Shown piece by piece: positions 18,545 through 64,000 of a DNA stretch of 64,000 bases. Source of the DNA: Candidatus Delongbacteria bacterium (GTDB taxonomy: Bacteria; UBA4055); the NCBI GenBank assembly GCA_036721445.1, contig DAIMKZ010000001.1:1175-65174 (forward strand), written 5' to 3'. The position numbers and the translations under genes were made by a program. Position 1 is the stretch's first letter. Every line of letters starts with the position of its first letter. Below the pieces are notes generated by a model. The model was not told the DNA's origin, ran no database searches, and was given only the letters and a program-made list of their open reading frames with translations.

Positions 18545-20201
18545 AGTACCAGCTTCCGCTGTATAAACGCTGATGATCTTCTTCGGTAAGTATCTTCGGT
18601 TTGATGATCCTTGCGGGTATCACGGGATTTGCAGCTTTCCATTCCGCTTCCCTTTTCTTTCTTAAGAACCCGTCTGCCACGTTCGGGAACAGTTCCATGA
18701 GAAGCTCTTCCTTATAATCTACCGCAAGCTTCACCCAGCCGAATTCCTTCAATATAGGATTCGGCTGTTTTTTATATTGGCTCGTGTCATAAGGAATTTC
18801 TTCCGGACTGCCGCATATCTCTTCTCTGAAATCGGGATCCACCGGGAACGGAGTAGTTCCGTACTGGCCCATCACGAGGTTGACGAACTGGTTGGTGAGA
18901 GTCGTATACTGAGGCTTGCCGTTCTGTTCGTCCAGAGCGAGATTGACCGCCTGGGTGCCTACTATCTGGCTGGTCGGTGTAACAAGCGGCGGGCATCCGG
19001 AATCGAGCCTGCACTTGGGCACGAGATGGAGCGCTCTGTCCATCAGATGGTCCAGTTTCAGCTGCTTGAGCTGCGCGACCATGTTCGTGTACATACCTCC
19101 CGGGATCTCCGCGTTCTTGACCTGCTCGTTGGGTTCCGGGAAGTTGAAATATTTTGTTATAGCCTGAGTATGAACAAGCAGTTCATCCACATTGCCGCTT
19201 TCAGCCGCTGCTATCGCCTTGTCGTAAAGAGCGTCAACCTCAGGGTCAAGTTTATAATCTGCTATATCGAATTCTCTCGGTATCAGCTTTGTTGTATCGA
19301 ACTGCTCAAGCTCTTTTCTTATCTTGGCAAGCTCTTTATCTATCATGCTCACCTGCTTCGCGTCAACTCCGGTATCGATCCCGAGCTTATCGCAGAATAT
19401 CCTTACAAGCTCATAAGCCGGAGCCGCCGGACCTCCAGCGAAGTTATAAAGAACGGTATCGACTATGTCTACACCGTTAACGATAGCTATAAAAACCGAT
19501 GCCAGCCCGTAACCGGGCGTATCGTGTGTGTGAAGGTCGATAGGAATGCTCACCGATTTCTTGAGTTCTCTGATCAGTTCGCCTGTCATTTTCGGGTGAA
19601 TTAATCCTGCCATATCTTTGATTGTAATTATGCCTGCGCCTTCTTTTTCGAGTTCTTTTGCTTTTTCAACAAAATACTGGACATTGAAAATATCACTCGG
19701 TAATTTTTTTCTTTTGAAGAAAGCTTTAACCTTATCTTTGAAAGTGAACCTCGGATCGACGGTGAAACATACTGCGCAGTCAGTTATCCCGCCGTATTTT
19801 TTTACGAACTTAATCGTCGAGGTCATATTGTTTATATCATTCAACGCATCGAATATTCTGACTATGCTGAGTCCTGATTTTAGAGTTTCTTTTGTGAAAC
19901 CCTCAATAACTTCGTCGGGATAAGGCGCGTAACCGAAAAGATTTCTTCCTCTGGAAAGACTTGTCAGTTTTGTGCTGTCACCGACCGCCACCTTTATCTT
20001 TTCCAGCCTGTCCCACGGATTCTCACCCAGATATCTCATGATCGAATCAGGTACAGCCCCCCCCCATACTTCGCAGGCGTAAAATCCGGCTTTCGCGTAG
20101 AACGGAAGAACTCTGTCTACCTGCGCCTGGCTCATTCTTGTTGCGAACTGCGACTGCTGTCCGTCTCTCAGTGTCAGATCTCTTATTTTCAGTTGTCTCA
20201 T
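18543..20201 (-). CDS. oxaloacetate decarboxylase alpha / pyruvate carboxylase 5S-type carboxyltransferase subunit (no biotinyl domain)
   Basis: 'LRDGQQS' and 'EVWGGAVPDS' HMGL-like TIM barrel with C-terminal dimerisation region. No 'AMKM' biotin attachment motif. Confidence 0.75.
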   Translation of the reverse strand: MRQLKIRDLTLRDGQQSQFATRMSQAQVDRVLPFYAKAGFYACEVWGGAVPDSIMRYLGENPWDRLEKIKVAVGDSTKLTSLSRGRNLFGYAPYPDEVIEGFTKETLKSGLSIVRIFDALNDINNMTSTIKFVKKYGGITDCAVCFTVDPRFTFKDKVKAFFKRKKLPSDIFNVQYFVEKAKELEKEGAGIITIKDMAGLIHPKMTGELIRELKKSVSIPIDLHTHDTPGYGLASVFIAIVNGVDIVDTVLYNFAGGPAAPAYELVRIFCDKLGIDTGVDAKQVSMIDKELAKIRKELEQFDTTKLIPREFDIADYKLDPEVDALYDKAIAAAESGNVDELLVHTQAITKYFNFPEPNEQVKNAEIPGGMYTNMVAQLKQLKLDHLMDRALHLVPKCRLDSGCPPLVTPTSQIVGTQAVNLALDEQNGKPQYTTLTNQFVNLVMGQYGTTPFPVDPDFREEICGSPEEIPYDTSQYKKQPNPILKEFGWVKLAVDYKEELLMELFPNVADGFLRKKREAEWKAANPVIPARIIKPKILTEEDHQRLYSGSWY

Positions 20202-28659: not shown

Positions 28660-30462
28660 TTAATCGTTCCTTCTGTCCATAAGATACCATTTATCGGATT
28701 CGGACAGCGTCTTTTCTTCAGTTCTCTCTTCTTTTTTTACAGGTTCGCCTTCGCTGATTAACTTTTTAGAAGCGAATCTTCCGTAGGTTGTCTGCGGATA
28801 TCTGTCCCTGATCTCTTCATAAATCCGGCCGGCCTTCCCGTAATTCTTCAGCAGTTTTTCTTCTATCATAGCTGCAGCCTGAAGTATCTGCGGAGAAAGA
28901 GGGCTGTCCTGATATTTTCTTGCAATTACAAGATATTCGTCCGCTGCTTCCTGATACAGCGAGTCAAGAAATTTCCCCGACGAAATGTTAAAAAAATATT
29001 TTGCGGAGTCTTCGATCACCTCAACAGGTTCAAGTCCCTCCCTTATCCTTATATAATTCGCGCCTGCAGTCTCAGGGTATTTTAACAGCACCGAATCAGA
29101 TAAATTAGAGTATCTTGCACTGTCGGCCATTATAAGCGAGATCATTGCCGCCGAAGCTTTATGAGGGTAGTTTCTTTCGGCAGACAGCTCTTCGAACAGT
29201 ACTAAAGCAGTATCCTGAAATCCCATTTCGAACATCGCAGATTCTGCGAGTGAATGTTTATCTTTTATATATGACGATTCAAGGCTTTTCTTCTGTTTAA
29301 TAAGCTCACTAGTTTTAGTTTCATCAACCGACCTTTCTATTTTTGCAGCAAGACTGTCATTTATTTCGGGGTACTCTTCCACTTTTTTCTTAAGCGAGCG
29401 GTAGTTCCTGATAAGATTTTTTCTTGCAACCGCCTTCTGATAAAAATCGTTCCTTCTGTCGTACCATCCGCTGGAGTCATACATATCTTCAGCCGAGTAT
29501 AGATCCTTCTTCAGATTGAAATAGTACTCGCCGAAATAATAAGCCGTTTCCGAAAGATCCGGCCCGTTCTTCTGATCCTTGGGATTTGTCCTTAATATCT
29601 CGTCAAGTTTATTATAAGCTTCTTTTTCCATAGCGTTCTGAACATAGAAGTCGGCTAATTTCACATCTCCCTTCAGCGAATATGCCGCATACTCCGGATC
29701 AGAAGTTATTCTCTCCAGTATGGAGACAGCCTCATCAGTATCTCCCAGATTTTTTAAAGCATCTGCGTAATTGAGTGTATATTGAAATATTTTCTCCCTT
29801 TCATTATGAAGATCTATCAGTTTTTTGTTTATTTCCGCGGATGTTTTATATTCTCCTAATTGGTCCGCGAGCACGGAACTGCTTTGAAGAACAGATATCC
29901 TGTCTATATCATTTTCAGCCTTTTCTGCGGATCTCAGCAGACCCTGCAGGGCTTTGACGCTGTCTCCCTGTGAAAGGCTCATTTCCGCGCCCAGTTTCAA
30001 AATTTTGTATGGCTCAATATTTATATTCTCGCTGCTTATTGTTTCCATGATCCTGCCTGCTTCGTCATAATTTTTCAAAGCTATCTCGACTTCAGCCAGA
30101 TATACTTTTGCCTGGTCCCGCAGATCAGAATCAGGGTAGTTAGTCAGAAGTTCGACGAATTTCTTTTGCGCTTTATAATTATCATCCTGTCTCATATAGC
30201 AGAGACCCATCATGAGAAGCGCGTCGTCCACCCACTTGCTGTCTGGATAGAACTCCAGTATCTTTGAAAGTTCTTTTATACTGTTCTCATACAGTGCTTT
30301 ATCGGTAATATTTTTCTCGATCCTTTTTTTTTCAGCTGAATTATAACTTTCCCTGGCGTTAAAATACATATTGTAATAAGCGCATCCCGAAATTATCAAC
30401 ATCCCGAAAAGCAGAAAATATGTACAAATTTTCTTTTTCAAGAATTCATCCTGTTCTTGCAC
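28660..30462 (-). CDS. tetratricopeptide-repeat protein with N-terminal membrane anchor
   Basis: Single N-terminal TM and multiple TPR-like helical repeats. Last gene of a long minus-strand operon. Confidence 0.55.
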   Translation of the reverse strand: MQEQDEFLKKKICTYFLLFGMLIISGCAYYNMYFNARESYNSAEKKRIEKNITDKALYENSIKELSKILEFYPDSKWVDDALLMMGLCYMRQDDNYKAQKKFVELLTNYPDSDLRDQAKVYLAEVEIALKNYDEAGRIMETISSENINIEPYKILKLGAEMSLSQGDSVKALQGLLRSAEKAENDIDRISVLQSSSVLADQLGEYKTSAEINKKLIDLHNEREKIFQYTLNYADALKNLGDTDEAVSILERITSDPEYAAYSLKGDVKLADFYVQNAMEKEAYNKLDEILRTNPKDQKNGPDLSETAYYFGEYYFNLKKDLYSAEDMYDSSGWYDRRNDFYQKAVARKNLIRNYRSLKKKVEEYPEINDSLAAKIERSVDETKTSELIKQKKSLESSYIKDKHSLAESAMFEMGFQDTALVLFEELSAERNYPHKASAAMISLIMADSARYSNLSDSVLLKYPETAGANYIRIREGLEPVEVIEDSAKYFFNISSGKFLDSLYQEAADEYLVIARKYQDSPLSPQILQAAAMIEEKLLKNYGKAGRIYEEIRDRYPQTTYGRFASKKLISEGEPVKKEERTEEKTLSESDKWYLMDRRND

Positions 30463-40455: not shown

Positions 40456-42130
40456 TACAGTGATAGAAATTTTTCAGTTCCTCGATTTTTCTTTCATACT
40501 TCAGAAAATCTTTTTTTGAAGGTTTGCCAAGTTTCTCTGCTGTCTCCTTCGCGATACTCATATAGTCTTTTCTGAATTTTTCAATATCATTAAGAGATAT
40601 TTTTTCTGTATCGAAATCGTCGTTTATACTGAATTCTCTGAAACTGCTTTTATGCCCGATATACCTCCATTCTGAAGTGACTGGATCAAAACCGTACAAT
40701 TTAAGGAACCTTTCACCATATTCTGCTATGAATTCTATTGCATCAATTATGTACCTTACGTCATTTTCTGTGAATATCCAGTGAAGATTTACTCTTACCC
40801 ATCCGGGTTTTACGCCGGAGATACCTTCACCAACGACAATTTCCCTGTATTTCAAAGACATTTCATTTGAAATATGGAGAAGTCTGTGACCGTAGGGTCC
40901 CGCACATGAACAGCCGGCCCTTGACTGAATCCCGAAAAGGTCGCTTAAAAGCCTTGTTACCAATCTTGGATGAAGGTATTTGTCGAGATGCCTAATATTG
41001 AAAGACACAATCGCAATTCTCTTATGCGGATTTTTATTCCCCATTATCTCAACTTTACCGCTGTTCCTGAAATGACCGAAGAAAAGCTTCTTATTTCTAT
41101 CCTCCAGTTTTTCGATCTCTTTGGTACCTATCCTGCTTTTCAACTCCATTGCAAAAGCTGTTTTTATTGTCTGAAGAATGGGAGGAGTGCCTGCCTTTTC
41201 TCTTGTTTCAATGTCCTTGGAATAATCCTGATCCGTAAAACCTACGAAGTCGACTGTTCCTCCGCCTGCAGTTGTAGGAGGAAGATCCGAACGGTACAGT
41301 TCTTTTCTGAAGATGAGCACTCCGGCGCTTCCCGGACCTCCGAGAAACTTATGCGGCGAGAAAAAAACCGCATCAAAATAACTTGTTTCATTTTTTCTCA
41401 CATTAATATCGGTATAAGGTGCGACTGCTGCAAAATCAAAGAAAATATATGCGCCGTTACTATGAGCTATTTTCGCAAGTTCATATGTATCTGTTATAAT
41501 ACCTGTAATATTTGATCCGGCCGAGAAAGAACAGTATTTCACTTTATCTTTGTACTTATCTTTTTTCAGCTCAAGATCAAGCATTTCCTTGTCAATTTCA
41601 CCTTCATCGTCAAGTTCAATAACCACTATATCCGCGAAAGACTCTCTCCACATAACTTCATTTGTGTGGTGTTCATAAGGACCTATGAAAACGACCGGCC
41701 TGTCGATCTTTATCTTTTCAAGGATGCTGCAGGATTCACAGCCCAGACTCTTTATTGAAGAAAACATCCTGTCTTTTGTGTGGGGAGGTATGTATATACC
41801 TAGTATCTCCTGAAGCCTCTTCAGAGCGCCTGTCGATCCTGATCCGACCGAGATTATCTTGTAATTTTCATCCGTATTTACAAGCTCTTTTATTTTTTTT
41901 TCTGCCCCGTGAAGAAGTGTTGTCAGGTATTCTCCGGAGTAATCGTCAGTAGTATGTGTATTTGCGTAAGATTTTTCAATATTCTGAAGTTTTTCTTCAA
42001 TGAATTTCAGGTTCCTTCCCGAAGCAGTGTAGTCGGCATAGAAAAGGTTCCTTTTCCCGAACGGGGTTTCGAACACTGAGTCGATGCCTATTATCTGATC
42101 CCTTACAAAATCTGCGCTTATCTTTTTCAT
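40427..42130 (-). CDS. aminotransferase class V fold PLP-dependent enzyme (cysteine desulfurase-like), extended 567 aa form
   Basis: 'SPHKFLGGPGSAGVLIF' PLP-lysine motif and 'AGCSCAGPYGH'. Extra N- and C-terminal regions. Confidence 0.6.
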   Translation of the reverse strand: MKKISADFVRDQIIGIDSVFETPFGKRNLFYADYTASGRNLKFIEEKLQNIEKSYANTHTTDDYSGEYLTTLLHGAEKKIKELVNTDENYKIISVGSGSTGALKRLQEILGIYIPPHTKDRMFSSIKSLGCESCSILEKIKIDRPVVFIGPYEHHTNEVMWRESFADIVVIELDDEGEIDKEMLDLELKKDKYKDKVKYCSFSAGSNITGIITDTYELAKIAHSNGAYIFFDFAAVAPYTDINVRKNETSYFDAVFFSPHKFLGGPGSAGVLIFRKELYRSDLPPTTAGGGTVDFVGFTDQDYSKDIETREKAGTPPILQTIKTAFAMELKSRIGTKEIEKLEDRNKKLFFGHFRNSGKVEIMGNKNPHKRIAIVSFNIRHLDKYLHPRLVTRLLSDLFGIQSRAGCSCAGPYGHRLLHISNEMSLKYREIVVGEGISGVKPGWVRVNLHWIFTENDVRYIIDAIEFIAEYGERFLKLYGFDPVTSEWRYIGHKSSFREFSINDDFDTEKISLNDIEKFRKDYMSIAKETAEKLGKPSKKDFLKYERKIEELKNFYHCIEIKRRDNA

Positions 42131-47286: not shown

Positions 47287-48510
47287 ATGAAAACACTAGT
47301 TCAGCTATATTTGAAAGACCTGTTGAGAAATAAAATGCTCGGCCTTATGGTTCTACTTGTTCCGATAATATTTTATCCCCTTATTTACTGGGGAATAAAC
47401 CAGTTCCTTATGGTCAAAACCGGTTTTTCGGACAGCAGGAAACTTACACTTTCCTATACTATTGAACAGGACGAGTTTTTACAGCTGGAAGATTCTCTGA
47501 TGGCAGTAAAGAACCTGATACTTGAAAGAACCGATAATTCAGACACAGGTAAAGATAGGATGCAGCTGATCGTTTCCAATAAAGGAGGACTGCCTCTTTA
47601 CTCCGTAATTATGGACAGCTCAAATTCGAATCACAAAGAGTTTTATCCCAGGATCGAGAATAAGCTTATCGGTTTTTATGAAACGAAAAAAAAAGAGTTA
47701 ATAGAAAATAAAGGATTCGAGAATGAATATTTTGACGTATTTCAAATTGAAACCAGAAATTCGGAAGGAGAGCATGAGATCATAAGAAAAATGCTCTCGC
47801 TCCTTATACCTCTGTTATCCGTTATCTCAATAATATCAGCTGCCGCCGCCGCGTCTGTTGAAATTACATCCGGCCAGTCGGAAGACAGAACGGCAGAGAC
47901 ATCACTGACACTTCCTCTGAAAAGGGAGAGCGTTATTATTTCGAAACTGCTGACCGTTAATATTTACGCATTGCTTGCAGGAACTGTCAATTTTGTTTTC
48001 CTTGTAGTTTTCATAATTACCATCTTCAGTTCCCTGATAACAGGAGTCTCGGAAGATATGACCGGGTTCAGCTGGAGTGAAATTTTCAGTCTGAATATTA
48101 TTATTATCGCACTGGTCTCGCTTCTTCTGACTTCCTTCTTCGTAAGCGTTATTTTTATTACAGCTTCAGGCTTTGCTTCTAAAAGAAAAGAGGGAGGTGT
48201 CATGATATCGCCTTTTACGGCTTTTCTGACATATCTTCCTCTTGTCCTTGTCATACCTGCGGTAGATCCCAATATTTTCATAGCTGCGACGCCTGTTCTG
48301 AACATATCCTTCTGTCTGAAACTGCTGATCGAGAACAATACCGACTTGATTTTCATGGCCGAAACAGCTCTATTTTCGATCCTGTGGCTTGTGATAATAT
48401 ATAAACTTTTCTTCCCGTTCCTCGTTGAAGAGGAAGTGCTTCTGGGTTATTCAGGCTCATCCATAACAAAAAAAATAAAAACAAAGTGGTCAAGATGGAA
48501 GAAACGATAA
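47287..48510 (+). CDS. ABC-2 type exporter permease
   Basis: N-terminal TM, large extracytoplasmic loop, then 5 TMs. Immediately upstream of an ABC ATPase. Confidence 0.55.
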   Translation: MKTLVQLYLKDLLRNKMLGLMVLLVPIIFYPLIYWGINQFLMVKTGFSDSRKLTLSYTIEQDEFLQLEDSLMAVKNLILERTDNSDTGKDRMQLIVSNKGGLPLYSVIMDSSNSNHKEFYPRIENKLIGFYETKKKELIENKGFENEYFDVFQIETRNSEGEHEIIRKMLSLLIPLLSVISIISAAAAASVEITSGQSEDRTAETSLTLPLKRESVIISKLLTVNIYALLAGTVNFVFLVVFIITIFSSLITGVSEDMTGFSWSEIFSLNIIIIALVSLLLTSFFVSVIFITASGFASKRKEGGVMISPFTAFLTYLPLVLVIPAVDPNIFIAATPVLNISFCLKLLIENNTDLIFMAETALFSILWLVIIYKLFFPFLVEEEVLLGYSGSSITKKIKTKWSRWKKR

Positions 48511-57388: not shown

Positions 57389-58135
57389 ATGTCAGGTCAT
57401 TCCAAATGGGCTACGATAAGAAGAAAGAAAGAAAAGATCGATGCGGCGAGAGGCAAGATTTTCACTAAATATCTGAAAGAAGTGATGACGGCTGCAAAAC
57501 TTGGCGGAAGTAATGAAAGCGCAAACCCAAGGCTTAAAACTGCGATAATGAAAGCCAAATCAGCGAATGTTCCCCTGGAAAGCATTACTAAGGCAAAGCT
57601 GAAAGGTGCCGGAGAGCTTCCGGGTATCCACTATGAGGACATCAATTATGAAGGTTACGGCCCGGGAGGAGTTGCGGTTATCGTTGAAACTATGACTGAC
57701 AATAAAGTAAGAACCGTAGGTGAAGTACGCCACCTCTTTACAAGGTTCGGAGGAAATCTGGGCGAGAACGGATCCGTCGGCTGGATGTTTAAAAAAATCG
57801 GACAGATAATAATCAGCGCTGAAGGAAAAGACGAGGATGCTGTACTTGAGGACGCTCTGGAAGCCGGAGCTGAAGATATGGTGAGAGAAGATGATAAATT
57901 CGTTATAACGACAGCCTTCGAGGATTATCTATCGGTATGCGACAAGCTCGAGAAGAAATATGAATTCGAATCGAACGAAGTAACCATGATCGCAGATAAC
58001 GAGGTTAAAGTACCTTCAGATAAAGTCAAAAACCTGATCAGCCTCCTTGAAGCGCTGGAGGATCTGGACGATGTTAACGATGTTTACAACAATGCCGATA
58101 TAGACGATGCCGATGTTGAAGCGATGGATAAATAA
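57389..58135 (+). CDS. yebC: YebC/PmpR family DNA-binding transcriptional regulator
   Basis: 'MSGHSKWATIRRKK' N-terminus. Conserved position upstream of ruvC-ruvA. Confidence 0.9.
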   Translation: MSGHSKWATIRRKKEKIDAARGKIFTKYLKEVMTAAKLGGSNESANPRLKTAIMKAKSANVPLESITKAKLKGAGELPGIHYEDINYEGYGPGGVAVIVETMTDNKVRTVGEVRHLFTRFGGNLGENGSVGWMFKKIGQIIISAEGKDEDAVLEDALEAGAEDMVREDDKFVITTAFEDYLSVCDKLEKKYEFESNEVTMIADNEVKVPSDKVKNLISLLEALEDLDDVNDVYNNADIDDADVEAMDK

Positions 58136-58635
58136 TGAGAATACTTGGAATAGACCCGGGAATTTCGTGCACCGGTTATGCCGTGCTTGATCAGGGCGAT
58201 GACGGGGCGGTTTCTCTTGTTGAGCTCGGCGTCATCAAAACATCTCCTTCAGAAACCATATCTCAGAGGCTTAAAACGATCTTTGAAGGTGTAGAGGAAG
58301 TGATTGTTTCTCTTGAGCCTGAACACCTCGCCATAGAAACAGTGTTCGTCGGTCGGAACGTTCAATCGGCATTAAAGCTCGGTCAGGCCCGCGGTGTGTC
58401 TATTGTCGCAGCGGCGAAAGCCGGTCTCGATGTAATGGAATTTTCTCCCAGAGAGGTAAAGCAGAATATCACGGGCAACGGAAATGCAACGAAAGAGCAG
58501 GTACAGTTCATGGTAACTTCGATCTTAAAACTGACCAAAGTTCCCAAACCGAACGATGCGGCGGACGCCGTCGCAATTGCACTTTCATTTATTCAGACCT
58601 ACAAATACAGATCGCAGATCAACAAACTGAGATAG
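58135..58635 (+). CDS. ruvC: crossover junction endodeoxyribonuclease RuvC
   Basis: 'ILGIDPGISCTGYAVL' with catalytic Asp and RNase-H fold length. Confidence 0.9.
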   Translation: MRILGIDPGISCTGYAVLDQGDDGAVSLVELGVIKTSPSETISQRLKTIFEGVEEVIVSLEPEHLAIETVFVGRNVQSALKLGQARGVSIVAAAKAGLDVMEFSPREVKQNITGNGNATKEQVQFMVTSILKLTKVPKPNDAADAVAIALSFIQTYKYRSQINKLR

Positions 58636-58639
58636 AATT

Positions 58640-59239
58640 ATGATAGAAATGCTTACAGGTGAATTAATTCAAAAAGAACCGTCCAGGATAATTATCAGCT
58701 GCGGAGGAGTGGGATTTGGAGTTATCATTTCATCGCACACATATTCTTCTCTTGGAGACATTGGATCTGTCCAGACACTTCACACATTCTTCAAGGTGAG
58801 AGAAGATGATATGTCACTTTATGGATTTTCGGATAAAAAAGAAAAGGAACTTTTTCTGCACCTGAGCTCGGTATCGGGAATAGGGCCGCGAACAGCGATC
58901 CAGGTACTTTCAGAGATCAAATATGACCGGCTTTTTTCTGCGATCACATCCGCCGATGTTACGCTCATATCTCAGGCGCACGGTGTAGGTAAGAAAACCG
59001 CACAGAAAATAGTATTCGAATTAAAAGACAAGATCGGCAGCATCGACGGTATATCCGCTTTGGGAGCTGTAATGGGAGCTTCGTCTGAAAATTCTGAGGC
59101 AGTTACTGCACTTGTCAGACTCGGATACAAAAATGCAGATGCGAACATTGCCGTAGCCCGGATAATTAAAGAAAAAGGTAAAGATGTTTCTACTCAGGAG
59201 ATAGTTAAGACCGCTCTGATGGAAAGAATGAAGAATTAG
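58640..59239 (+). CDS. ruvA: Holliday junction branch-migration protein RuvA
   Basis: 'MIEMLTGEL...' OB domain, HhH 'SVSGIGPRTAIQV' and C-terminal RuvB-binding domain. Confidence 0.9.
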   Translation: MIEMLTGELIQKEPSRIIISCGGVGFGVIISSHTYSSLGDIGSVQTLHTFFKVREDDMSLYGFSDKKEKELFLHLSSVSGIGPRTAIQVLSEIKYDRLFSAITSADVTLISQAHGVGKKTAQKIVFELKDKIGSIDGISALGAVMGASSENSEAVTALVRLGYKNADANIAVARIIKEKGKDVSTQEIVKTALMERMKN

Positions 59240-59306
59240 AACATTTATCATATCATCAAAGTCCTTTTCATTGTTATATTGCATTTAAGGAAAAAGGACG
59301 GACAAA

Positions 59307-59546
59307 TTGAAAAAGCACATTAATATAGATATAAAGGGAATGCACTGCGCCAGCTGCTCATCGCTTGTTACCCTGTCGCTGAAGAACCGAAAGGGTATCG
59401 AGGATGTTTCAGTGAATCTTCTTATGAACAGTGCCGCTTTGATTATAGATGACCGGGAAATCGGTGTTCCTGACATTATTGAAATAATAAACGATCTGGG
59501 TTACAAGGCTTCTTTGGCAGAGGAAGGCGTAAAAAAAAAGCCCTGA
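59307..59546 (+). CDS. copZ: heavy-metal-associated (HMA) domain ORF; probably the N-terminal metal-binding domain of CopA separated from the ATPase body by a frameshift
   Basis: 'GMHCASC' MxCxxC motif. TTG start. Stop TGA at 59544 lies immediately after the A9 run 59531-59539. Confidence 0.6.
59531..59539 (+). other. A9 homopolymer at the junction of the HMA ORF and the CopA core reading frame (candidate slippage / frameshift site)
   Basis: Nine consecutive A's. Deleting one A fuses the two reading frames. Confidence 0.6.
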
Positions 59547-59620
59547 ATGATGAAAGTTTAAAGTTCAGAAAGCTGTTTTTTCTCTCCCTAATATTCGCCT
59601 TCCCTGCCTTTATTCTGGGG

Positions 59621-61468
59621 ATGTTTTTTATGGAACATCCCCTTTTTTATTATCAGAATTACATACTCTGGTTCCTGGCCACTCCCGTCCAGTTCTATGC
59701 CGCGAAAGATATGTATATAAGCGCTTTTAAAGCTTTAAAGAACCGGAGTGCGAATATGGACTCTCTTGTAGTCCTAGGTACAAGTTCAGCATATTTTTAC
59801 AGCGTTTTTCTGGTTCTTTCACACGATCATCATAACTATTTCGAGGCCAGTGCCGTTCTGATCACGGTCGTCATACTCGGAAGATACCTTGAGGCAGTCG
59901 CTAAAAGAAAGACCGGTCAGGCAATAGAAAGTCTGATGAAGCTCTCCCCTTCCAATGCAACGGTGATCCGTGACGGCAATGAAATACTTATAAGCATCGA
60001 TGATATCAAGATCGGAGATATTGTGATCGTAAGACCGGGAGAAAAGATACCTGTTGACGGAACTGTCACCGAAGGAAGTTCAAAAGTTGATGAAAGCATG
60101 ATAACGGGAGAATCGGTCCCGGTTTCAAAAAAAGAAGGTACAAAAGTCATTGGAGCCACAGTTAATCAGTTCGGAGTTTTTAAGTTCCGTGCAGAAAAGA
60201 TCGGATCTGATACTGTTCTTTCCAGAATTATTAAGCTTGTCGAAGATGCACAGAGTAAAAAGGCTCAGATCCAGAGGTACGCAGACCTTATATCCTCGTA
60301 TTTTGTTCCGGCCGTACTTGGAATTGCATTTCTTACATTCGTCATCTGGCTTACGCTGGGGTATGAATTCAATTTCGCGATAATGACGGCCGTCTCTGTC
60401 CTTGTCGTCTCTTGCCCGTGCGCTCTCGGACTTGCTACACCCACTGCCATCATGGTAGGATCCGGGATCGGAGCAAAATACGGTATTCTCTTCAAGGGCG
60501 GAGATTCTCTTGAAACTGCGCACAGGCTGAAGAACATCGTTTTTGATAAAACAGGCACCCTTACGATAGGCCGACCGGTCGTAACGGATATGATCGATGT
60601 TGAAGATAACAAGAACATGATACTCCTTGCAGCCTCTATGGAAAAACAAAGCGAACACAGTCTTGCAAAAGCAATACTTGAAAAAACCAGCGGAGAGATA
60701 CTTTACGCTGCAAAAGATGTTCAGGCGGTATCAGGTCACGGAATTACGGGTGTGATCGAAGGCACTCCGTATTTTCTTGGAAATGAGGCGTTAATGCAGA
60801 AAAACGGAATTGATATAAGCACGCAAGTGGAAACGATAAAAAAGCTCGAAAAAGAAGGAAAGACCGTAGTAATTTTAGCTTCAAAGGACGGAGTTCAAGG
60901 CATCATCGGAATCGCGGATGATGTCAAGGAAACCGCAGCTGAGGCCGTTGCAGATCTGAAAAAGGCGGGGCACAAGATATTCATGATAACAGGTGATAAC
61001 GAAACTGCCGCTCAGAATATAGGAAAAATACTCGGGATCGATCAGGTCTATGCCCGGACTCTGCCGGAAAATAAATCTGAAATAGTCAAAAAGATAAAAG
61101 AAACAGGCCCGACAGCTATGATCGGCGACGGCATTAATGATTCTCCCGCACTTGCCGAAGCAGATATAGGTATCGCGATGGGATCAGGAACAGATGTAGC
61201 GATTGAGACCGGTAATATAGTTCTTATGCGTAACGACCTTGAAGATATTTCAAAAGCTATCAGACTCAGCAGACTCACGATGAACAGGATCAGACTCAAC
61301 ATGTTCTGGGCCCTGTTTTATAATGTATTGGGTATACCGGTCGCCGCGGGAGTATTCTATGCCTGGACAGGCTGGCTCTTAAGCCCGATGATAGCCGGAA
61401 CAGCAATGGCGCTAAGTTCAGTCAGCGTCGTTACCAGTTCGCTTTTGCTCAGGTATAAAAAACTGTGA
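59621..61468 (+). CDS. copA: copper-translocating P1B-type ATPase core (CopA); frame is open upstream to 59522 without a start codon
   Basis: '[10 protein letters not shown]', 'DKTGTLT', '[10 protein letters not shown]', actuator motif 'TGES' and 8 TMs. The frame-2 translation upstream of the first ATG reads '[33 protein letters not shown]', a typical CopA linker plus the first TM helix (TM-A). Confidence 0.8.
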
Positions 61469-61474
61469 TCTGAT

Positions 61475-61783
61475 CTACTTTCTCATCCTGCAGCCTGTAG
61501 AACCTCCCCCTCCGCCGAAAGTCGCGGCAACACCCAGCAGAAATCCAAAGTTATACCAGGTTCCGTTGTTGTGAACTTCATATATTCCGATATTATCATT
61601 GAACAGTGAAATTACAAATGTGATCGGAGAGATCGTCCCGTGCCAAATCCCGTACCAGAAACCGGCAGGTTCTTTCGTGAATTCAGTAAAAGTGATCGCA
61701 TTATTCGGTCCAGCCGTGCAGCCTGCGATTACAAGAAGTGCAATTACGCATGAAACAACTAATACTTTTTTTTTATTTTTTAT
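61475..61783 (-). CDS. putative small lipoprotein with Gly5 C-terminal tail; no canonical start codon
   Basis: Minus-strand frame is open for about 102 codons: '(I)KNKKKVLVVSCVIALLVIAGC|TAGPNN...WYNFGFLLGVAATFGGGGGSTGCRMRK*'. Lipobox 'IAGC'. AAGAGGA sits about 5 nt upstream of an ATA codon at 61783-61781. Missed by the ORF track because no ATG/GTG/TTG is in frame. Confidence 0.35.
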   Translation of the reverse strand: MKNKKKVLVVSCVIALLVIAGCTAGPNNAITFTEFTKEPAGFWYGIWHGTISPITFVISLFNDNIGIYEVHNNGTWYNFGFLLGVAATFGGGGGSTGCRMRK

Positions 61784-61792
61784 CCTCTTTTT

Positions 61793-62116
61793 TTATCTCT
61801 TGTTCTTTTTCGGTTTAGGCAGCGGAAGTTCTTTCTCTGTAACTTTGACAAGCTCGGAAAGCCAGTCGGGGTCATCGAGATTGTCTATTAGAAAATAATT
61901 CTTTGCGCCTGTGTAAGGCGGAGCTTCTTCGGGTTCGCCTATGTATTTTCTGCCTGCTTCAGTAGGCTTGATAAAAAGCTGGTTGTCAGCCAGAATTGCA
62001 GTCATTTTCCCGTTGAGAAATATTCCGTACTCACCGAACATTTTCTTTGCTGTCACTTCGCCTGCGCCTTCAAGCTGCTCGAGTATATAATCCGCGAAAT
62101 CTTTGTCTGTAGCCAT
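61793..62116 (-). CDS. TfoX N-terminal domain-containing protein
   Basis: 'KKMFGEYGIFLNGKMTAILADNQLFIK' resembles the TfoX_N family. Confidence 0.55.
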   Translation of the reverse strand: MATDKDFADYILEQLEGAGEVTAKKMFGEYGIFLNGKMTAILADNQLFIKPTEAGRKYIGEPEEAPPYTGAKNYFLIDNLDDPDWLSELVKVTEKELPLPKPKKNKR

Positions 62117-62135
62117 AACTCCCCCGCTGATCTGA

Positions 62136-64000
62136 TTATTGAAAGTCCATTAAAGATTCATCTATTCCTTTTCTGATCTCGAACCAGAAGTTTAAGGCAG
62201 CCTCATGCTTATCGTTATCGAACTGCTCAATCCAGTATTTCAGATCTTCCCTGCTCTCGCCGTCAACATCCCGCTTCCTTTTGAGGAAAGCGTGAATAAA
62301 ATCAATATTTCTTTCCGATTCGAGAAATACTGTTGCGTTGCGGGAATTTATCCTGCTTGCTGTGAATGAAACGGCCGAATTGAATTTTTCCTTCATTCCG
62401 TATATATATCCGATTATCTCAGGCATCATTTCCTCTGCCCATGCTCTGTGGAACCTGCATATTCCCATGTTGTCGAGGACGAGTTCCTGTTTCAGTCTTT
62501 CGGCACAGAATCTTCCCAGATCTCTCGGAGGTACAAAATCGTTCCCGTAATACATGTAGTATTTGCCCATGATAGCCATCGGTGCAAGAACTCCGGGTGT
62601 CCAGTACTGGTTCGGCGCCATCCAGCCTCTTCTTCCGTTTGATATAAAAACAAAGCTGTTAATGATCTTTTTGCCTGTCATTTTGTGTATCTTTCTTGCC
62701 CATTTTCTCACTCCTTCCGACAGATCAATATCGCCTTTCCCTTCAAGTATCGAATCAATAAGCTCAATCCCGAGTTCAGCGTTGTGCATCGAATCTTTTA
62801 CTACATCGAATTTTTCGATCGAGAATTTTGGAAGTTTTGATACGCCGAGCTGATCTTTTGAGAGTATTCCTTCATTTAACAGTTCCATGAACCACGAAAG
62901 AACGCACCCGCAGTTTATAGCGTCGAGCCCAATTGTGTCGCAGTAGTGATTAAGCATTTCCGCAGCTCTCTGGTCGAATATCCCGCACTGAGGTCCCAGG
63001 GTCTGATAAGGTTCATAATCTTTCTTATATTCCCCGTTCATTTTTTTGCACACAGCCGCGCACGGTTCCCCGCATGTGGACTGCTGTTTTTTCTCGATCG
63101 TCTCCTCGTTGAACTGCTTCAGATAGTGTGAGGAAATGTATTTCTCATTCAGATCGAGCCTTTCAACTTCGGTCATGTATATCGATTTATAATTGAAAGC
63201 TATTATTCTGCCTTTGAGAGTAGCATAATTCACTCCAAAAGTTCCGCCCGTGCCGAATTTGGGATCGAAACGGTATTTCGTGGTGCTTTCAAAATCCTTT
63301 GCCGCAAGCTTCTGCTCATACTTCTGCCTGAACCATTCGTCAGCAACATTCCTGTCCCTGAAATCCTCATCAACTTTAGTTCCGCCGTAAATTATCGAGG
63401 CTATACCGTGATCCTGATACAATTTGGAACCGAATCCTCCCCTGCCTGCCCATGTATCAACATAAGTCAGCTTACCTTTGACAATCGGGACTGAACAAAT
63501 GCCTCCGAAATCGGTCTGCTTCGAACCCGGTCCTGTGGCAAGTATTCTCGGATCTTTCTCGTATCTTGAGCCGAACTGTTTATAAGTATGGTCCATGAGA
63601 GAATATATCCCTTTTCTGCCGCTTTTCCAGACGCTTTCTATATCTGCCGGCACGATCTCAACTTCGATCTCATCTCCGTGATTCCTGTTCAGGTAGAGTA
63701 TTGATTTTGAAGCGGCTTTTCCCACAATACTGACCATATTGATCCCGAGATTGTCAAAGACCAGCCCTGCCCCGCCCATTGAAGATATGTAAAAACCTCT
63801 CCAGCACGGAGAATATCCTGTAAAAATAAGCCTGTTCGATCCTGGAAAAATTGAGCCTGCAAAGAGTCCCGTACCGATGTTGAGCGACCTGTAATTATCA
63901 GACATGTGTATCCCGAGATCGACCGGACCGAAATAATCTCCGACCTTGTAACGCCTGACTTTGTAAAACCCGTTCGAGGCGTCAACGAGTAAAACTTTTA
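62136..64000 (-). CDS. aldehyde:ferredoxin oxidoreductase family (tungsten/molybdopterin), N-terminus truncated by window edge
   Basis: The frame remains open upstream of the ORF-track ATG to the window end ('KVLLVDASNGFYKVRRYKVGDYFGPVDLGI-MSDNYRSL...'), matching the AOR N-terminal 'ILRVDL..G' region. 'CGEPCAAVC' Fe-S Cys cluster and 'CDTIGLDAINCG' motifs. Confidence 0.7.
   Translation of the reverse strand, partial: KVLLVDASNGFYKVRRYKVGDYFGPVDLGIHMSDNYRSLNIGTGLFAGSIFPGSNRLIFTGYSPCWRGFYISSMGGAGLVFDNLGINMVSIVGKAASKSILYLNRNHGDEIEVEIVPADIESVWKSGRKGIYSLMDHTYKQFGSRYEKDPRILATGPGSKQTDFGGICSVPIVKGKLTYVDTWAGRGGFGSKLYQDHGIASIIYGGTKVDEDFRDRNVADEWFRQKYEQKLAAKDFESTTKYRFDPKFGTGGTFGVNYATLKGRIIAFNYKSIYMTEVERLDLNEKYISSHYLKQFNEETIEKKQQSTCGEPCAAVCKKMNGEYKKDYEPYQTLGPQCGIFDQRAAEMLNHYCDTIGLDAINCGCVLSWFMELLNEGILSKDQLGVSKLPKFSIEKFDVVKDSMHNAELGIELIDSILEGKGDIDLSEGVRKWARKIHKMTGKKIINSFVFISNGRRGWMAPNQYWTPGVLAPMAIMGKYYMYYGNDFVPPRDLGRFCAERLKQELVLDNMGICRFHRAWAEEMMPEIIGYIYGMKEKFNSAVSFTASRINSRNATVFLESERNIDFIHAFLKRKRDVDGESREDLKYWIEQFDNDKHEAALNFWFEIRKGIDESLMDFQ

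Follow-up and report, generated by a model that had tools for sequence, protein, structure and literature searches.

A close counterpart of the locus described here is rsbW of Listeria monocytogenes, in which a third-base G-to-A change turns the start codon from ATG into ATA in natural or selected populations; neither the Shine-Dalgarno sequence nor the reading frame is damaged, and the natural mutants make a reduced but still detectable amount of protein (PMC13068326). Initiation at AUA in E. coli reaches about 0.02-3% of the AUG level, i.e. it is 30- to 5,000-fold weaker (bioRxiv 10.1101/063800). A second set of counterparts comprises genes whose poly(A) frameshifts are rescued by transcriptional slippage, as in Buchnera and Blochmannia, in dnaX of Thermus, and in mxiE and spa13 of Shigella, slippage being efficient on runs of nine A (PMC5009743); about 40% frame change was measured for an A9 run in an E. 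coli reporter (PMC3711429). Finally, a programmed -1 frameshift in E. coli copA allows one locus to give both a small HMA chaperone-like protein, CopA(Z), and the full-length pump, through a change of frame at a domain junction (Meydan 2017, as cited in PMC7558416 and PMC5009743).

The window analysed here is a stretch of 64,000 nucleotides from a Candidatus Delongbacteria bacterium, and the gene in question is a small lipoprotein gene on its minus strand. Like rsbW, this gene carries a third-base G-to-A change at the start with its Shine-Dalgarno sequence and frame intact, and its translation would likewise be lowered rather than abolished; unlike in rsbW, where the effect has been measured and is adaptive, the altered codon sits in a slippery A10/A9 run and is known from sequence alone. 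With the poly(A) slippage genes it shares 9-10 A within the coding sequence, a productive frame that would be reached in part of the mRNAs or ribosomes, and a tract length that varies between close genomes. Those genes keep a canonical start, whereas the run considered here starts within what was once the start codon. The locus is an ordinary start-codon-loss allele of a known though uncurated family, and we consider the chance somewhat better than even that the ATA allele represents a recent start-codon knock-down, or a nascent pseudogene, of a conserved lipoprotein gene. It offers a dated natural example of ATG-to-ATA start loss inside a slippery A-run, and could be used to test how much protein AUA initiation and poly-A slippage yield outside model organisms.

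A lipoprotein reading frame between TfoX_N and copA

The initial annotation had noted an uninterrupted minus-strand frame with a lipoprotein signal peptide, wedged between copA and a TfoX_N gene and lacking a usual start codon. The features of this region are as follows.

61793..62116, minus strand: upstream TfoX_N gene (Pfam PF04993, E=5e-17)
61783..61789, minus strand: Shine-Dalgarno-like AAGAGGA, as read from the sequence
61781..61783, minus strand: ATA, the only in-frame near-cognate codon in the window allele, abutting the Shine-Dalgarno sequence with no spacer
61774..61776, minus strand: ATA at the ancestral ATG position, 7 nt after GAGG, +1 out of frame in the window
61766..61774, minus strand: poly-A tract, A9 in the window and A10 in five near-identical assemblies
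61475..61777, minus strand: lipoprotein gene body, 100 codons plus stop, starting at an AAT that aligns with the Met of relatives
61718..61777, minus strand: signal peptide with a KKK n-region, the h-region VLVVSCVIALLV, and the lipobox IAGC at 61729-61718
61720-61718, minus strand: codon of the predicted lipidated Cys, residue 20, as read from the sequence
61478..61516, minus strand: Gly5 run and basic tail, GGGGGSTGCRMRK

Translation bears this description out. The frame (61792..61478) is open from the TfoX_N stop codon, TAA at 61795-61793, to a TAG at 61477-61475, and translates as KKRIKNKKKVLVVSCVIALLVIAGC...FGGGGGSTGCRMRK before the stop; read on from TfoX_N it can also be written KKRIKNKKKVLVVSCVIALLVIAGCTAGPNN...FGGGGGSTGCRMRK, on the same strand and with the same end at 61477-61475. 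The translation and the mechanical ORF list agree that the frame has no ATG, GTG or TTG ahead of the signal peptide; its first ATG lies three codons before the stop. For this reason the frame is absent from the list, and gene callers, which require one of these three codons, skip the gene. The alternative ATG at 61751-61749 encodes 16 aa only (MRNCTSCNRRLHGWTE, then a stop), as originally reported. On the other side lies the P-type ATPase gene copA, which is encoded on the plus strand, convergent with the lipoprotein gene, and ends at 61468. An Rfam search of 58000-64000 returned no match.

Two details of the initial annotation required revision. The T9 and T6 runs that had been placed at 61756-61771 are, on the plus strand, a T9 at 61766-61774 and a T6 at 61776-61781, with a T7 at 61788-61794. 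Likewise, AAGAGGA had been described as lying about 5 nt before an in-frame ATA; the motif occupies 61789-61783 and the codon 61783-61781, a spacing of zero, and this lack of a spacer led us to reject the ATA at 61783-61781 as a good start.

The translation contains every feature by which lipoprotein signals were recognized, namely a charged n-region, a hydrophobic h-region, and a lipobox (pattern [LVI][ASTVI][GAS]C) within about 15-35 residues of the start. By these signal features, its product is a putative bacterial lipoprotein of the Lgt/LspA substrate class. The TfoX_N stop lies 16 nt ahead of the ancestral start position, so the TfoX_N and lipoprotein genes probably share a transcript.

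A widespread and uncharacterized lipoprotein family

A word-index search with the 102-aa translation recovered 395 homologous proteins at E<=1e-3, with E-values for the match to the window protein down to 5e-48. Nearly all of these homologs are 94-110 aa long and lack a Pfam domain, and the closest come from Candidatus Delongbacteria assemblies (P0001, 79% identity over 97% of the query; P0002, 88% over 74%). An exhaustive search with a profile of 112 members extended the family to 1,878 clusters (50% identity), of which 1,018 reached E<=1e-10, and a tblastn-confirmed scan of species-representative genomes located at least 579 family loci. Among the matches listed, these loci span Chloroflexota, Actinomycetota, Spirochaetota, Acidobacteriota, Verrucomicrobiota, Bacteroidota and others, and the cultured actinomycetotal carriers include Janibacter, Oerskovia, Actinotalea, Georgenia and Cryobacterium.

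Throughout the family, a lipobox signal peptide is followed by a CxAGPN motif, an aromatic-rich helix, a YEVHNNG loop, and a Gly-rich C-terminal helix with a basic tail. The motif string reads GFWxGxWHG...YEVHNNGxWYNFGF, and the C-terminal consensus is FGGGGGGAxxRRxx. Across 112 aligned homologs, the lipobox Cys, F40, G43, W45, G47, S57, L58, F59, N70, G72, W74, Y75, G78 and G82 are invariant, while G23 and N25 of the CxAGPN motif and E67 are nearly so; the window sequence carries every invariant column. Over the mature part, comparison of the window copy with five relatives gives dN/dS values (Nei-Gojobori) of 0.05-0.24, synonymous changes far outnumbering non-synonymous ones, a pattern indicating that purifying selection acted during the history of the gene. 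The initial annotation had proposed conservation as a check on the frame: it is indeed kept in relatives, where it begins with ATG, and dN/dS is well below 1. Because of the 395 homologs and the large excess of synonymous changes, the minus-strand frame is, on this evidence, a real conserved gene rather than a chance ORF, and by its alignment it is the local ortholog of a widespread, uncharacterized family of lipoproteins of about 100 aa.

This family of 1,878 clusters across many phyla is without a Pfam or NCBIfam model. With the window protein, no Pfam family, the glycine-zipper lipoprotein families included, scored above its gathering threshold, the sole match being DUF7537 at E=0.28; when ten longer family members were searched against Pfam, no model matched the lipoprotein module. 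An NCBIfam search likewise placed no family above its cutoff for the window protein. A weak likeness over the signal peptide and first helix was seen to NF045606, the J517_1871 family lipoprotein of Acinetobacter, which is matched by 24 of the 112 family members (best E 1.5e-5). The window protein itself scores 23.1 bits against NF045606, below the curated 60-bit cutoff and with only profile positions 3-63 of 133 aligned, and membership was rejected on that score. Annotation has overlooked this conserved gene in the window and in no fewer than three annotated public assemblies (JGI, NCBI, ENA).

Predicted structure and membrane topology

An AlphaFold2 model built from the 112-sequence alignment has a moderate pLDDT of 67.7, and comprises the signal-peptide helix and two further helices.

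61601..61660, minus strand: predicted helix 1, residues 40-59, FWYGIWHGTISPITFVISLF, carrying the motif GFWxGxWHG...SLF
61502..61561, minus strand: predicted helix 2, residues 73-92, WYNFGFLLGVAATFGGGGG, from the AlphaFold2 model

Both helices are of moderate hydropathy, about 1.0-1.2 on the Kyte-Doolittle scale over 15 residues, and helix 2 is probably a C-terminal membrane anchor. Two longer family members help to deduce the topology. In P0121 (211 aa), the lipoprotein module is tandem-duplicated within one protein; its helix 2 is longer and forms a clear membrane segment, after which come KK and a new signal-like helix. In P0205 (328 aa), the module forms the C-terminal end of a fusion with a DUF975-like polytopic membrane protein. 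From the AlphaFold2 helices, their moderate hydropathy, the Gly-rich and basic tail, and the membrane segment of P0121, we infer a topology in which the lipid anchor would lie outside, followed by an aromatic-rich interfacial helix and the short conserved YEVHNNG loop, after which the C-terminal helix would cross inward and leave the basic tail in the cytoplasm. No PDB relatives were found by sequence profile, and a Foldseek search of the model against the PDB gave no match (best E=2.4).

Gene neighborhoods and the proposed copper link

The Gly-rich, Cys-containing tail near a copper locus had initially been considered suggestive. Developed into an explanation, this would make the lipoprotein an accessory that handles copper for the neighboring copA and binds metal through its Gly/Cys tail. 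In its favor, the tail has one Cys, and the close relatives L007, L088, L090 and L095 also have copA next to the gene. The two genes are, however, convergent and do not form one operon, and the adjacency is limited to the Delongbacteria-type lineage. Around distant family members (74 upstream and 76 downstream neighbors), no Pfam family occurs at more than 7 loci, the most frequent being uridine kinase (PRK) upstream and P5C reductase downstream. P-type ATPases account for 2 of the 74 upstream neighbors, and both also match Cation_ATPase_C, which suggests that they are of a non-copper type. The C-terminal Cys is absent from most members and is not a conserved alignment column, and no CxxC, HMA or Met-rich motif was found in the window lipoprotein. 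With neither a metal-binding motif nor family-wide linkage to copper genes, a role as a copper chaperone or resistance accessory was rejected; we judge it very improbable, and the earlier suggestion drawn from the tail finds no support here. A functional guess based on operon context was also rejected, as neighbor enrichment across 78 loci revealed no conserved partner.

Loss of the ATG start codon

The TfoX_N-lipoprotein-copA arrangement, with an ATG start about 7 nt after GAGG, was found in L007, L088, L089, L090 and L095. The start region reads GAGGTTATA ATG AAG AAA AAA GTA in L007 and L095, GAGGGTATA ATG AAT AAA AAA TTG in L088 and L089, and GAGGATATG ATG AAT AAA AAA TTG in L090. In L006, where the 5' half of the gene resembles that of the window and the gene neighborhood differs, it reads AAGGATAAAA ATG AAG AAA AAA GTA. 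The consensus in relatives is GAGG(T/G/A)TAT(A/G) ATG AA(G/T) AAA AAA, with a GAGG or AAGGA element kept at the same spacing before the ATG. A canonical start was likewise present at all 78 homologous loci from distant species that could be analysed among the matches listed in the species-representative scan (76 ATG, 2 GTG). These starts lie 13-41 codons before the lipobox Cys, the commonest position being 19 codons (33 of 78). At that position the window has AAT and its siblings ATA, and neither allele has a canonical start within the family range. Since no non-canonical start was seen among the six close relatives (L006, L007, L088, L089, L090 and L095) and the 78 distant loci all start canonically, a conserved regulatory non-canonical start of the infC type was rejected.

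The exact TfoX_N protein of the window also occurs in five other contigs, from JGI, ENA and NCBI sources. These siblings are 99.8-99.96% identical to the window, and their annotations leave the interval from TfoX_N to copA without a gene. Each of the five reads AAGAGGATAAAAA ATA AAA AAA AAA GTA TTA, i.e. T+A10, and the start region, GAGG-ATAAAAA-ATA-AAA-AAA-AAA-GTA, places ATA in frame 7 nt after GAGG. As seen in L001, the frame of the A10 allele is TAA AAA ATA AAA AAA AAA GTA (stop, then KIKKKVLVVSC...), and the TAA two codons upstream of ATA leaves no other start possible there. The window lineage thus differs by two G-to-A changes, from ATG AAG AAA AAA GTA to ATA AAA AAA AAA GTA; the changes of ATG to ATA and of AAG to AAA removed the canonical start and created an uninterrupted T+A10. 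Among the relatives with an ATG, the nearest is L095, whose DNA matches the window at about 89% identity across 57629-62116; the loss of the start is therefore recent.

A sequencing error that conceals a real ATG would take a single base change beside a homopolymer. The same ATA and the same AAG-to-AAA change are, however, common to six assemblies (two from JGI, two from ENA, one NCBI MAG, and the window), which excludes a base-calling error at the start codon, and we give this explanation next to no credence. Exact-pattern scans of metagenome contigs for the start region gave no match; the pattern matches the known loci, and the collection does not contain these contigs. Of the outcomes that the initial annotation had bracketed (a real gene using an ATA or ATT start, a gene hidden by an error, or one recently decayed), the gene has proved real, with an ATA at the ancestral ATG position. 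An error in the start-codon base falls away given the six assemblies, and the ATA start holds in part: the A9 of the window, in place of A10, throws the well-spaced ATA out of frame, and the in-frame ATA is unspaced.

In the window, A9 also places the lipoprotein frame in frame with TfoX_N: the stretch 62116-61777 is divisible by three, with a single TAA between the two frames. Read in this way, the lipoprotein would be a C-terminal extension of TfoX_N made by stop-codon readthrough. The frames differ in the A10 siblings, L007, L088 and L090, which marks the relation in the window as a coincidence, and an internal lipoprotein signal peptide on a cytoplasmic domain would make no sense. A readthrough fusion was rejected because its frame relation is absent from relatives, and we assign it a negligible probability.

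Similarity to the L007/L095 lineage is mosaic across this region, the 5' half of the lipoprotein gene resembling L006 instead. Identity to L007 is about 78% for TfoX_N and drops to about 70% over the 5' half of the lipoprotein gene, then rises to 95-100% between about 61600 and the 3' end of copA. This jump in identity inside the lipoprotein gene points to recent recombination or transfer, with a breakpoint at about 61600-61650. Upstream of TfoX_N, the window carries an aldehyde:ferredoxin oxidoreductase-like gene (62136-63905, minus strand), where the about 89%-identical relatives L007 and L095 have an unrelated gene (L007:2-796 and L095:4501-5301, with a weak HD-domain match in L095); a synteny break thus lies right beside the TfoX_N-lipoprotein pair. 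Separately, L002 (MAG GCA_964533025.1) reads GGAAAAGAAGG at 954-958, equivalent to window 61506-61510, where all others have GGAGGGGGAGG. Four clustered G-to-A differences there change GGGGG to GGKEG in the Gly run, and represent either a variant or an assembly artefact.

Length of the poly(A) tract

Over 5,208 aligned bases, the window and L001, the longest of the siblings, are 99.96% identical, differing by one SNP and one indel, and the indel is A9 versus A10 in the tract at the former start codon. A10 is present in five of the six assemblies, and A9 was seen once, in the window. With A9 instead of A10, the ATA at 61776-61774 falls one base out of frame and reads IKKKY before a stop. Taken at face value, and on a single observation of A9 that may be an assembly error, a tract in the 5' coding region would switch frame among genomes that are 99.96% identical. 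Classical contingency loci retain a good start codon. Here, the efficient start upstream of the tract that phase variation calls for is lacking, the codon being ATA in every assembly.

It is quite possible, with a probability we place a little short of even, that the A9 of the window arose when assembly or consensus calling lost one base from the longest homopolymer of the region, and that the true allele is A10. Consensus sequences go wrong most often in the length of homopolymers, no run in the shared 5.2 kb is longer than A10, and A10 is the allele of five of the six assemblies. However, 15 homopolymers of at least 6 nt are shared with L001, and the other 14, including an A9 in copA, agree, so runs are not shortened as a rule in the window assembly. 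Tracts of A10 are, moreover, hypermutable in vivo. Such an error bears only on the frame of the ATA, and not on the loss of the ATG.

A frame change at a poly(A) run in copA

The neighboring copA is itself split, at an A9 run at 59531-59539 (window 59307-59625, plus strand). The HMA ORF ends ...EEGVKKKP at a stop, and the remainder, from the first membrane helix of the ATPase onward, is encoded in the -1 frame, which offers no start codon ahead of 59621; the site reads GTA AAA AAA AAG CCC TGA. The eight lineages examined (the window, L088, L090, L091, L092, L093, L094 and L095), with CopA identities of 68-94%, have the same layout: an HMA ORF of 77-92 aa reaches a stop one codon past an A9 or A10 run, and the ATPase follows in the -1 frame. 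All 26 of the closest CopA homologs are called without the HMA domain, and more distant ones (<=61% identity) have it fused. No conserved RNA structure was found downstream of the run.

The run looks like a candidate for conserved programmed slippage, if transcriptional, or for -1 frameshifting. Standard decoding would give a CopZ-like protein, and slippage (+1A or -1) the full-length pump. As in E. coli copA, one locus would provide both a small HMA protein and the pump; unlike the E. coli case, as outlined in the papers that cite it, the logic is reversed, standard decoding yielding the HMA protein of 77-92 aa and slippage the pump, and the site is an A9/A10 run without conserved downstream structure. 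In the literature searched, no mention of such a copA slippage arrangement was found. This frame change is the more valuable by-product of the analysis, and deserves a study of its own.

Expression of the ATA allele

The G-to-A changes removed the ATG and left an ATA at the ancestral start, inside the T+A10 run. Under the start-codon knock-down that we favor, any remaining translation would rely on weak AUA initiation, and in the A9 allele of the window the frame would also have to be restored, either by a +1A transcriptional slip or by a -1 slip of the ribosome on A_AAA_AAA_AAG. Expression would consequently be strongly reduced or absent, the body being still intact presumably because the loss of the start is young. 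Several results argue for such a knock-down: the ATG-started syntenic orthologs in five relatives, the canonical starts at all 78 distant loci (most often 19 codons before the Cys), and the size of a family (395 matches, 1,878 clusters) in which the lipobox Cys and motif residues are invariant. The ATA is common to six assemblies, and the A10 allele has a TAA two codons upstream. Moreover, the change is recent on the L095 comparison, the gene has a history of purifying selection, AUA is a weak initiator in E. coli, and the Listeria rsbW mutants make less protein.

The same locus has properties that fit a gene still in use. Its body contains no stop or frameshift, the Shine-Dalgarno sequence is retained, and ATA is the sole allele in six assemblies, where it is not obviously being purged. 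Runs of A9 or A10 slip at high frequency, and the copA of this clade appears to rely on a similar run, so the A9 allele need not be dead. The gene may thus still be functional, starting at AUA with correct spacing and giving a low-abundance envelope protein, with the A9/A10 tract tuning or phase-varying its output by DNA slippage between alleles, or by RNA polymerase or ribosome slippage within a cell. This we regard as possible but doubtful. Beyond the intact 100-codon body and Shine-Dalgarno sequence, it draws on the ATA standing exactly at the ancestral ATG position, and on a tract whose length varies among 99.96%-identical assemblies in which the equally long copA A9 run is invariant. The window sequence ATA AAA AAA AAG TAT TAG is also laid out like the copA site, the -1 frame carrying the protein in both. 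Slippage on nine A is efficient (PMC5009743, PMC3711429), and translation from ATA is detectable in Listeria. Against a functional gene stand the absence of non-canonical starts from the 78 distant loci and 6 close relatives, the 30- to 5,000-fold weakness of AUA relative to AUG in E. coli, the good start codons of classical contingency loci, and the single observation of A9, itself a possible assembly error.

On a broader and more speculative view, A9/A10 runs may be a regular expression device of the Delongbacteria-type lineage, in which case the lipoprotein gene would have come under the regime proposed for copA, where a +1A or -1 slip joins the HMA domain to the pump; the lipoprotein would be translated from AUA, the tract would set or phase-vary the in-frame fraction, and the gene would be no pseudogene; we consider this unlikely. 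Further A/T runs of nine occur in the window at 30324-30332, 41893-41901 and 47686-47694, together with a C9 at 20057-20065, all inside long uninterrupted open frames. If RNA polymerase slips on A9 in the source organism, the genes containing those runs would also give mixed products.
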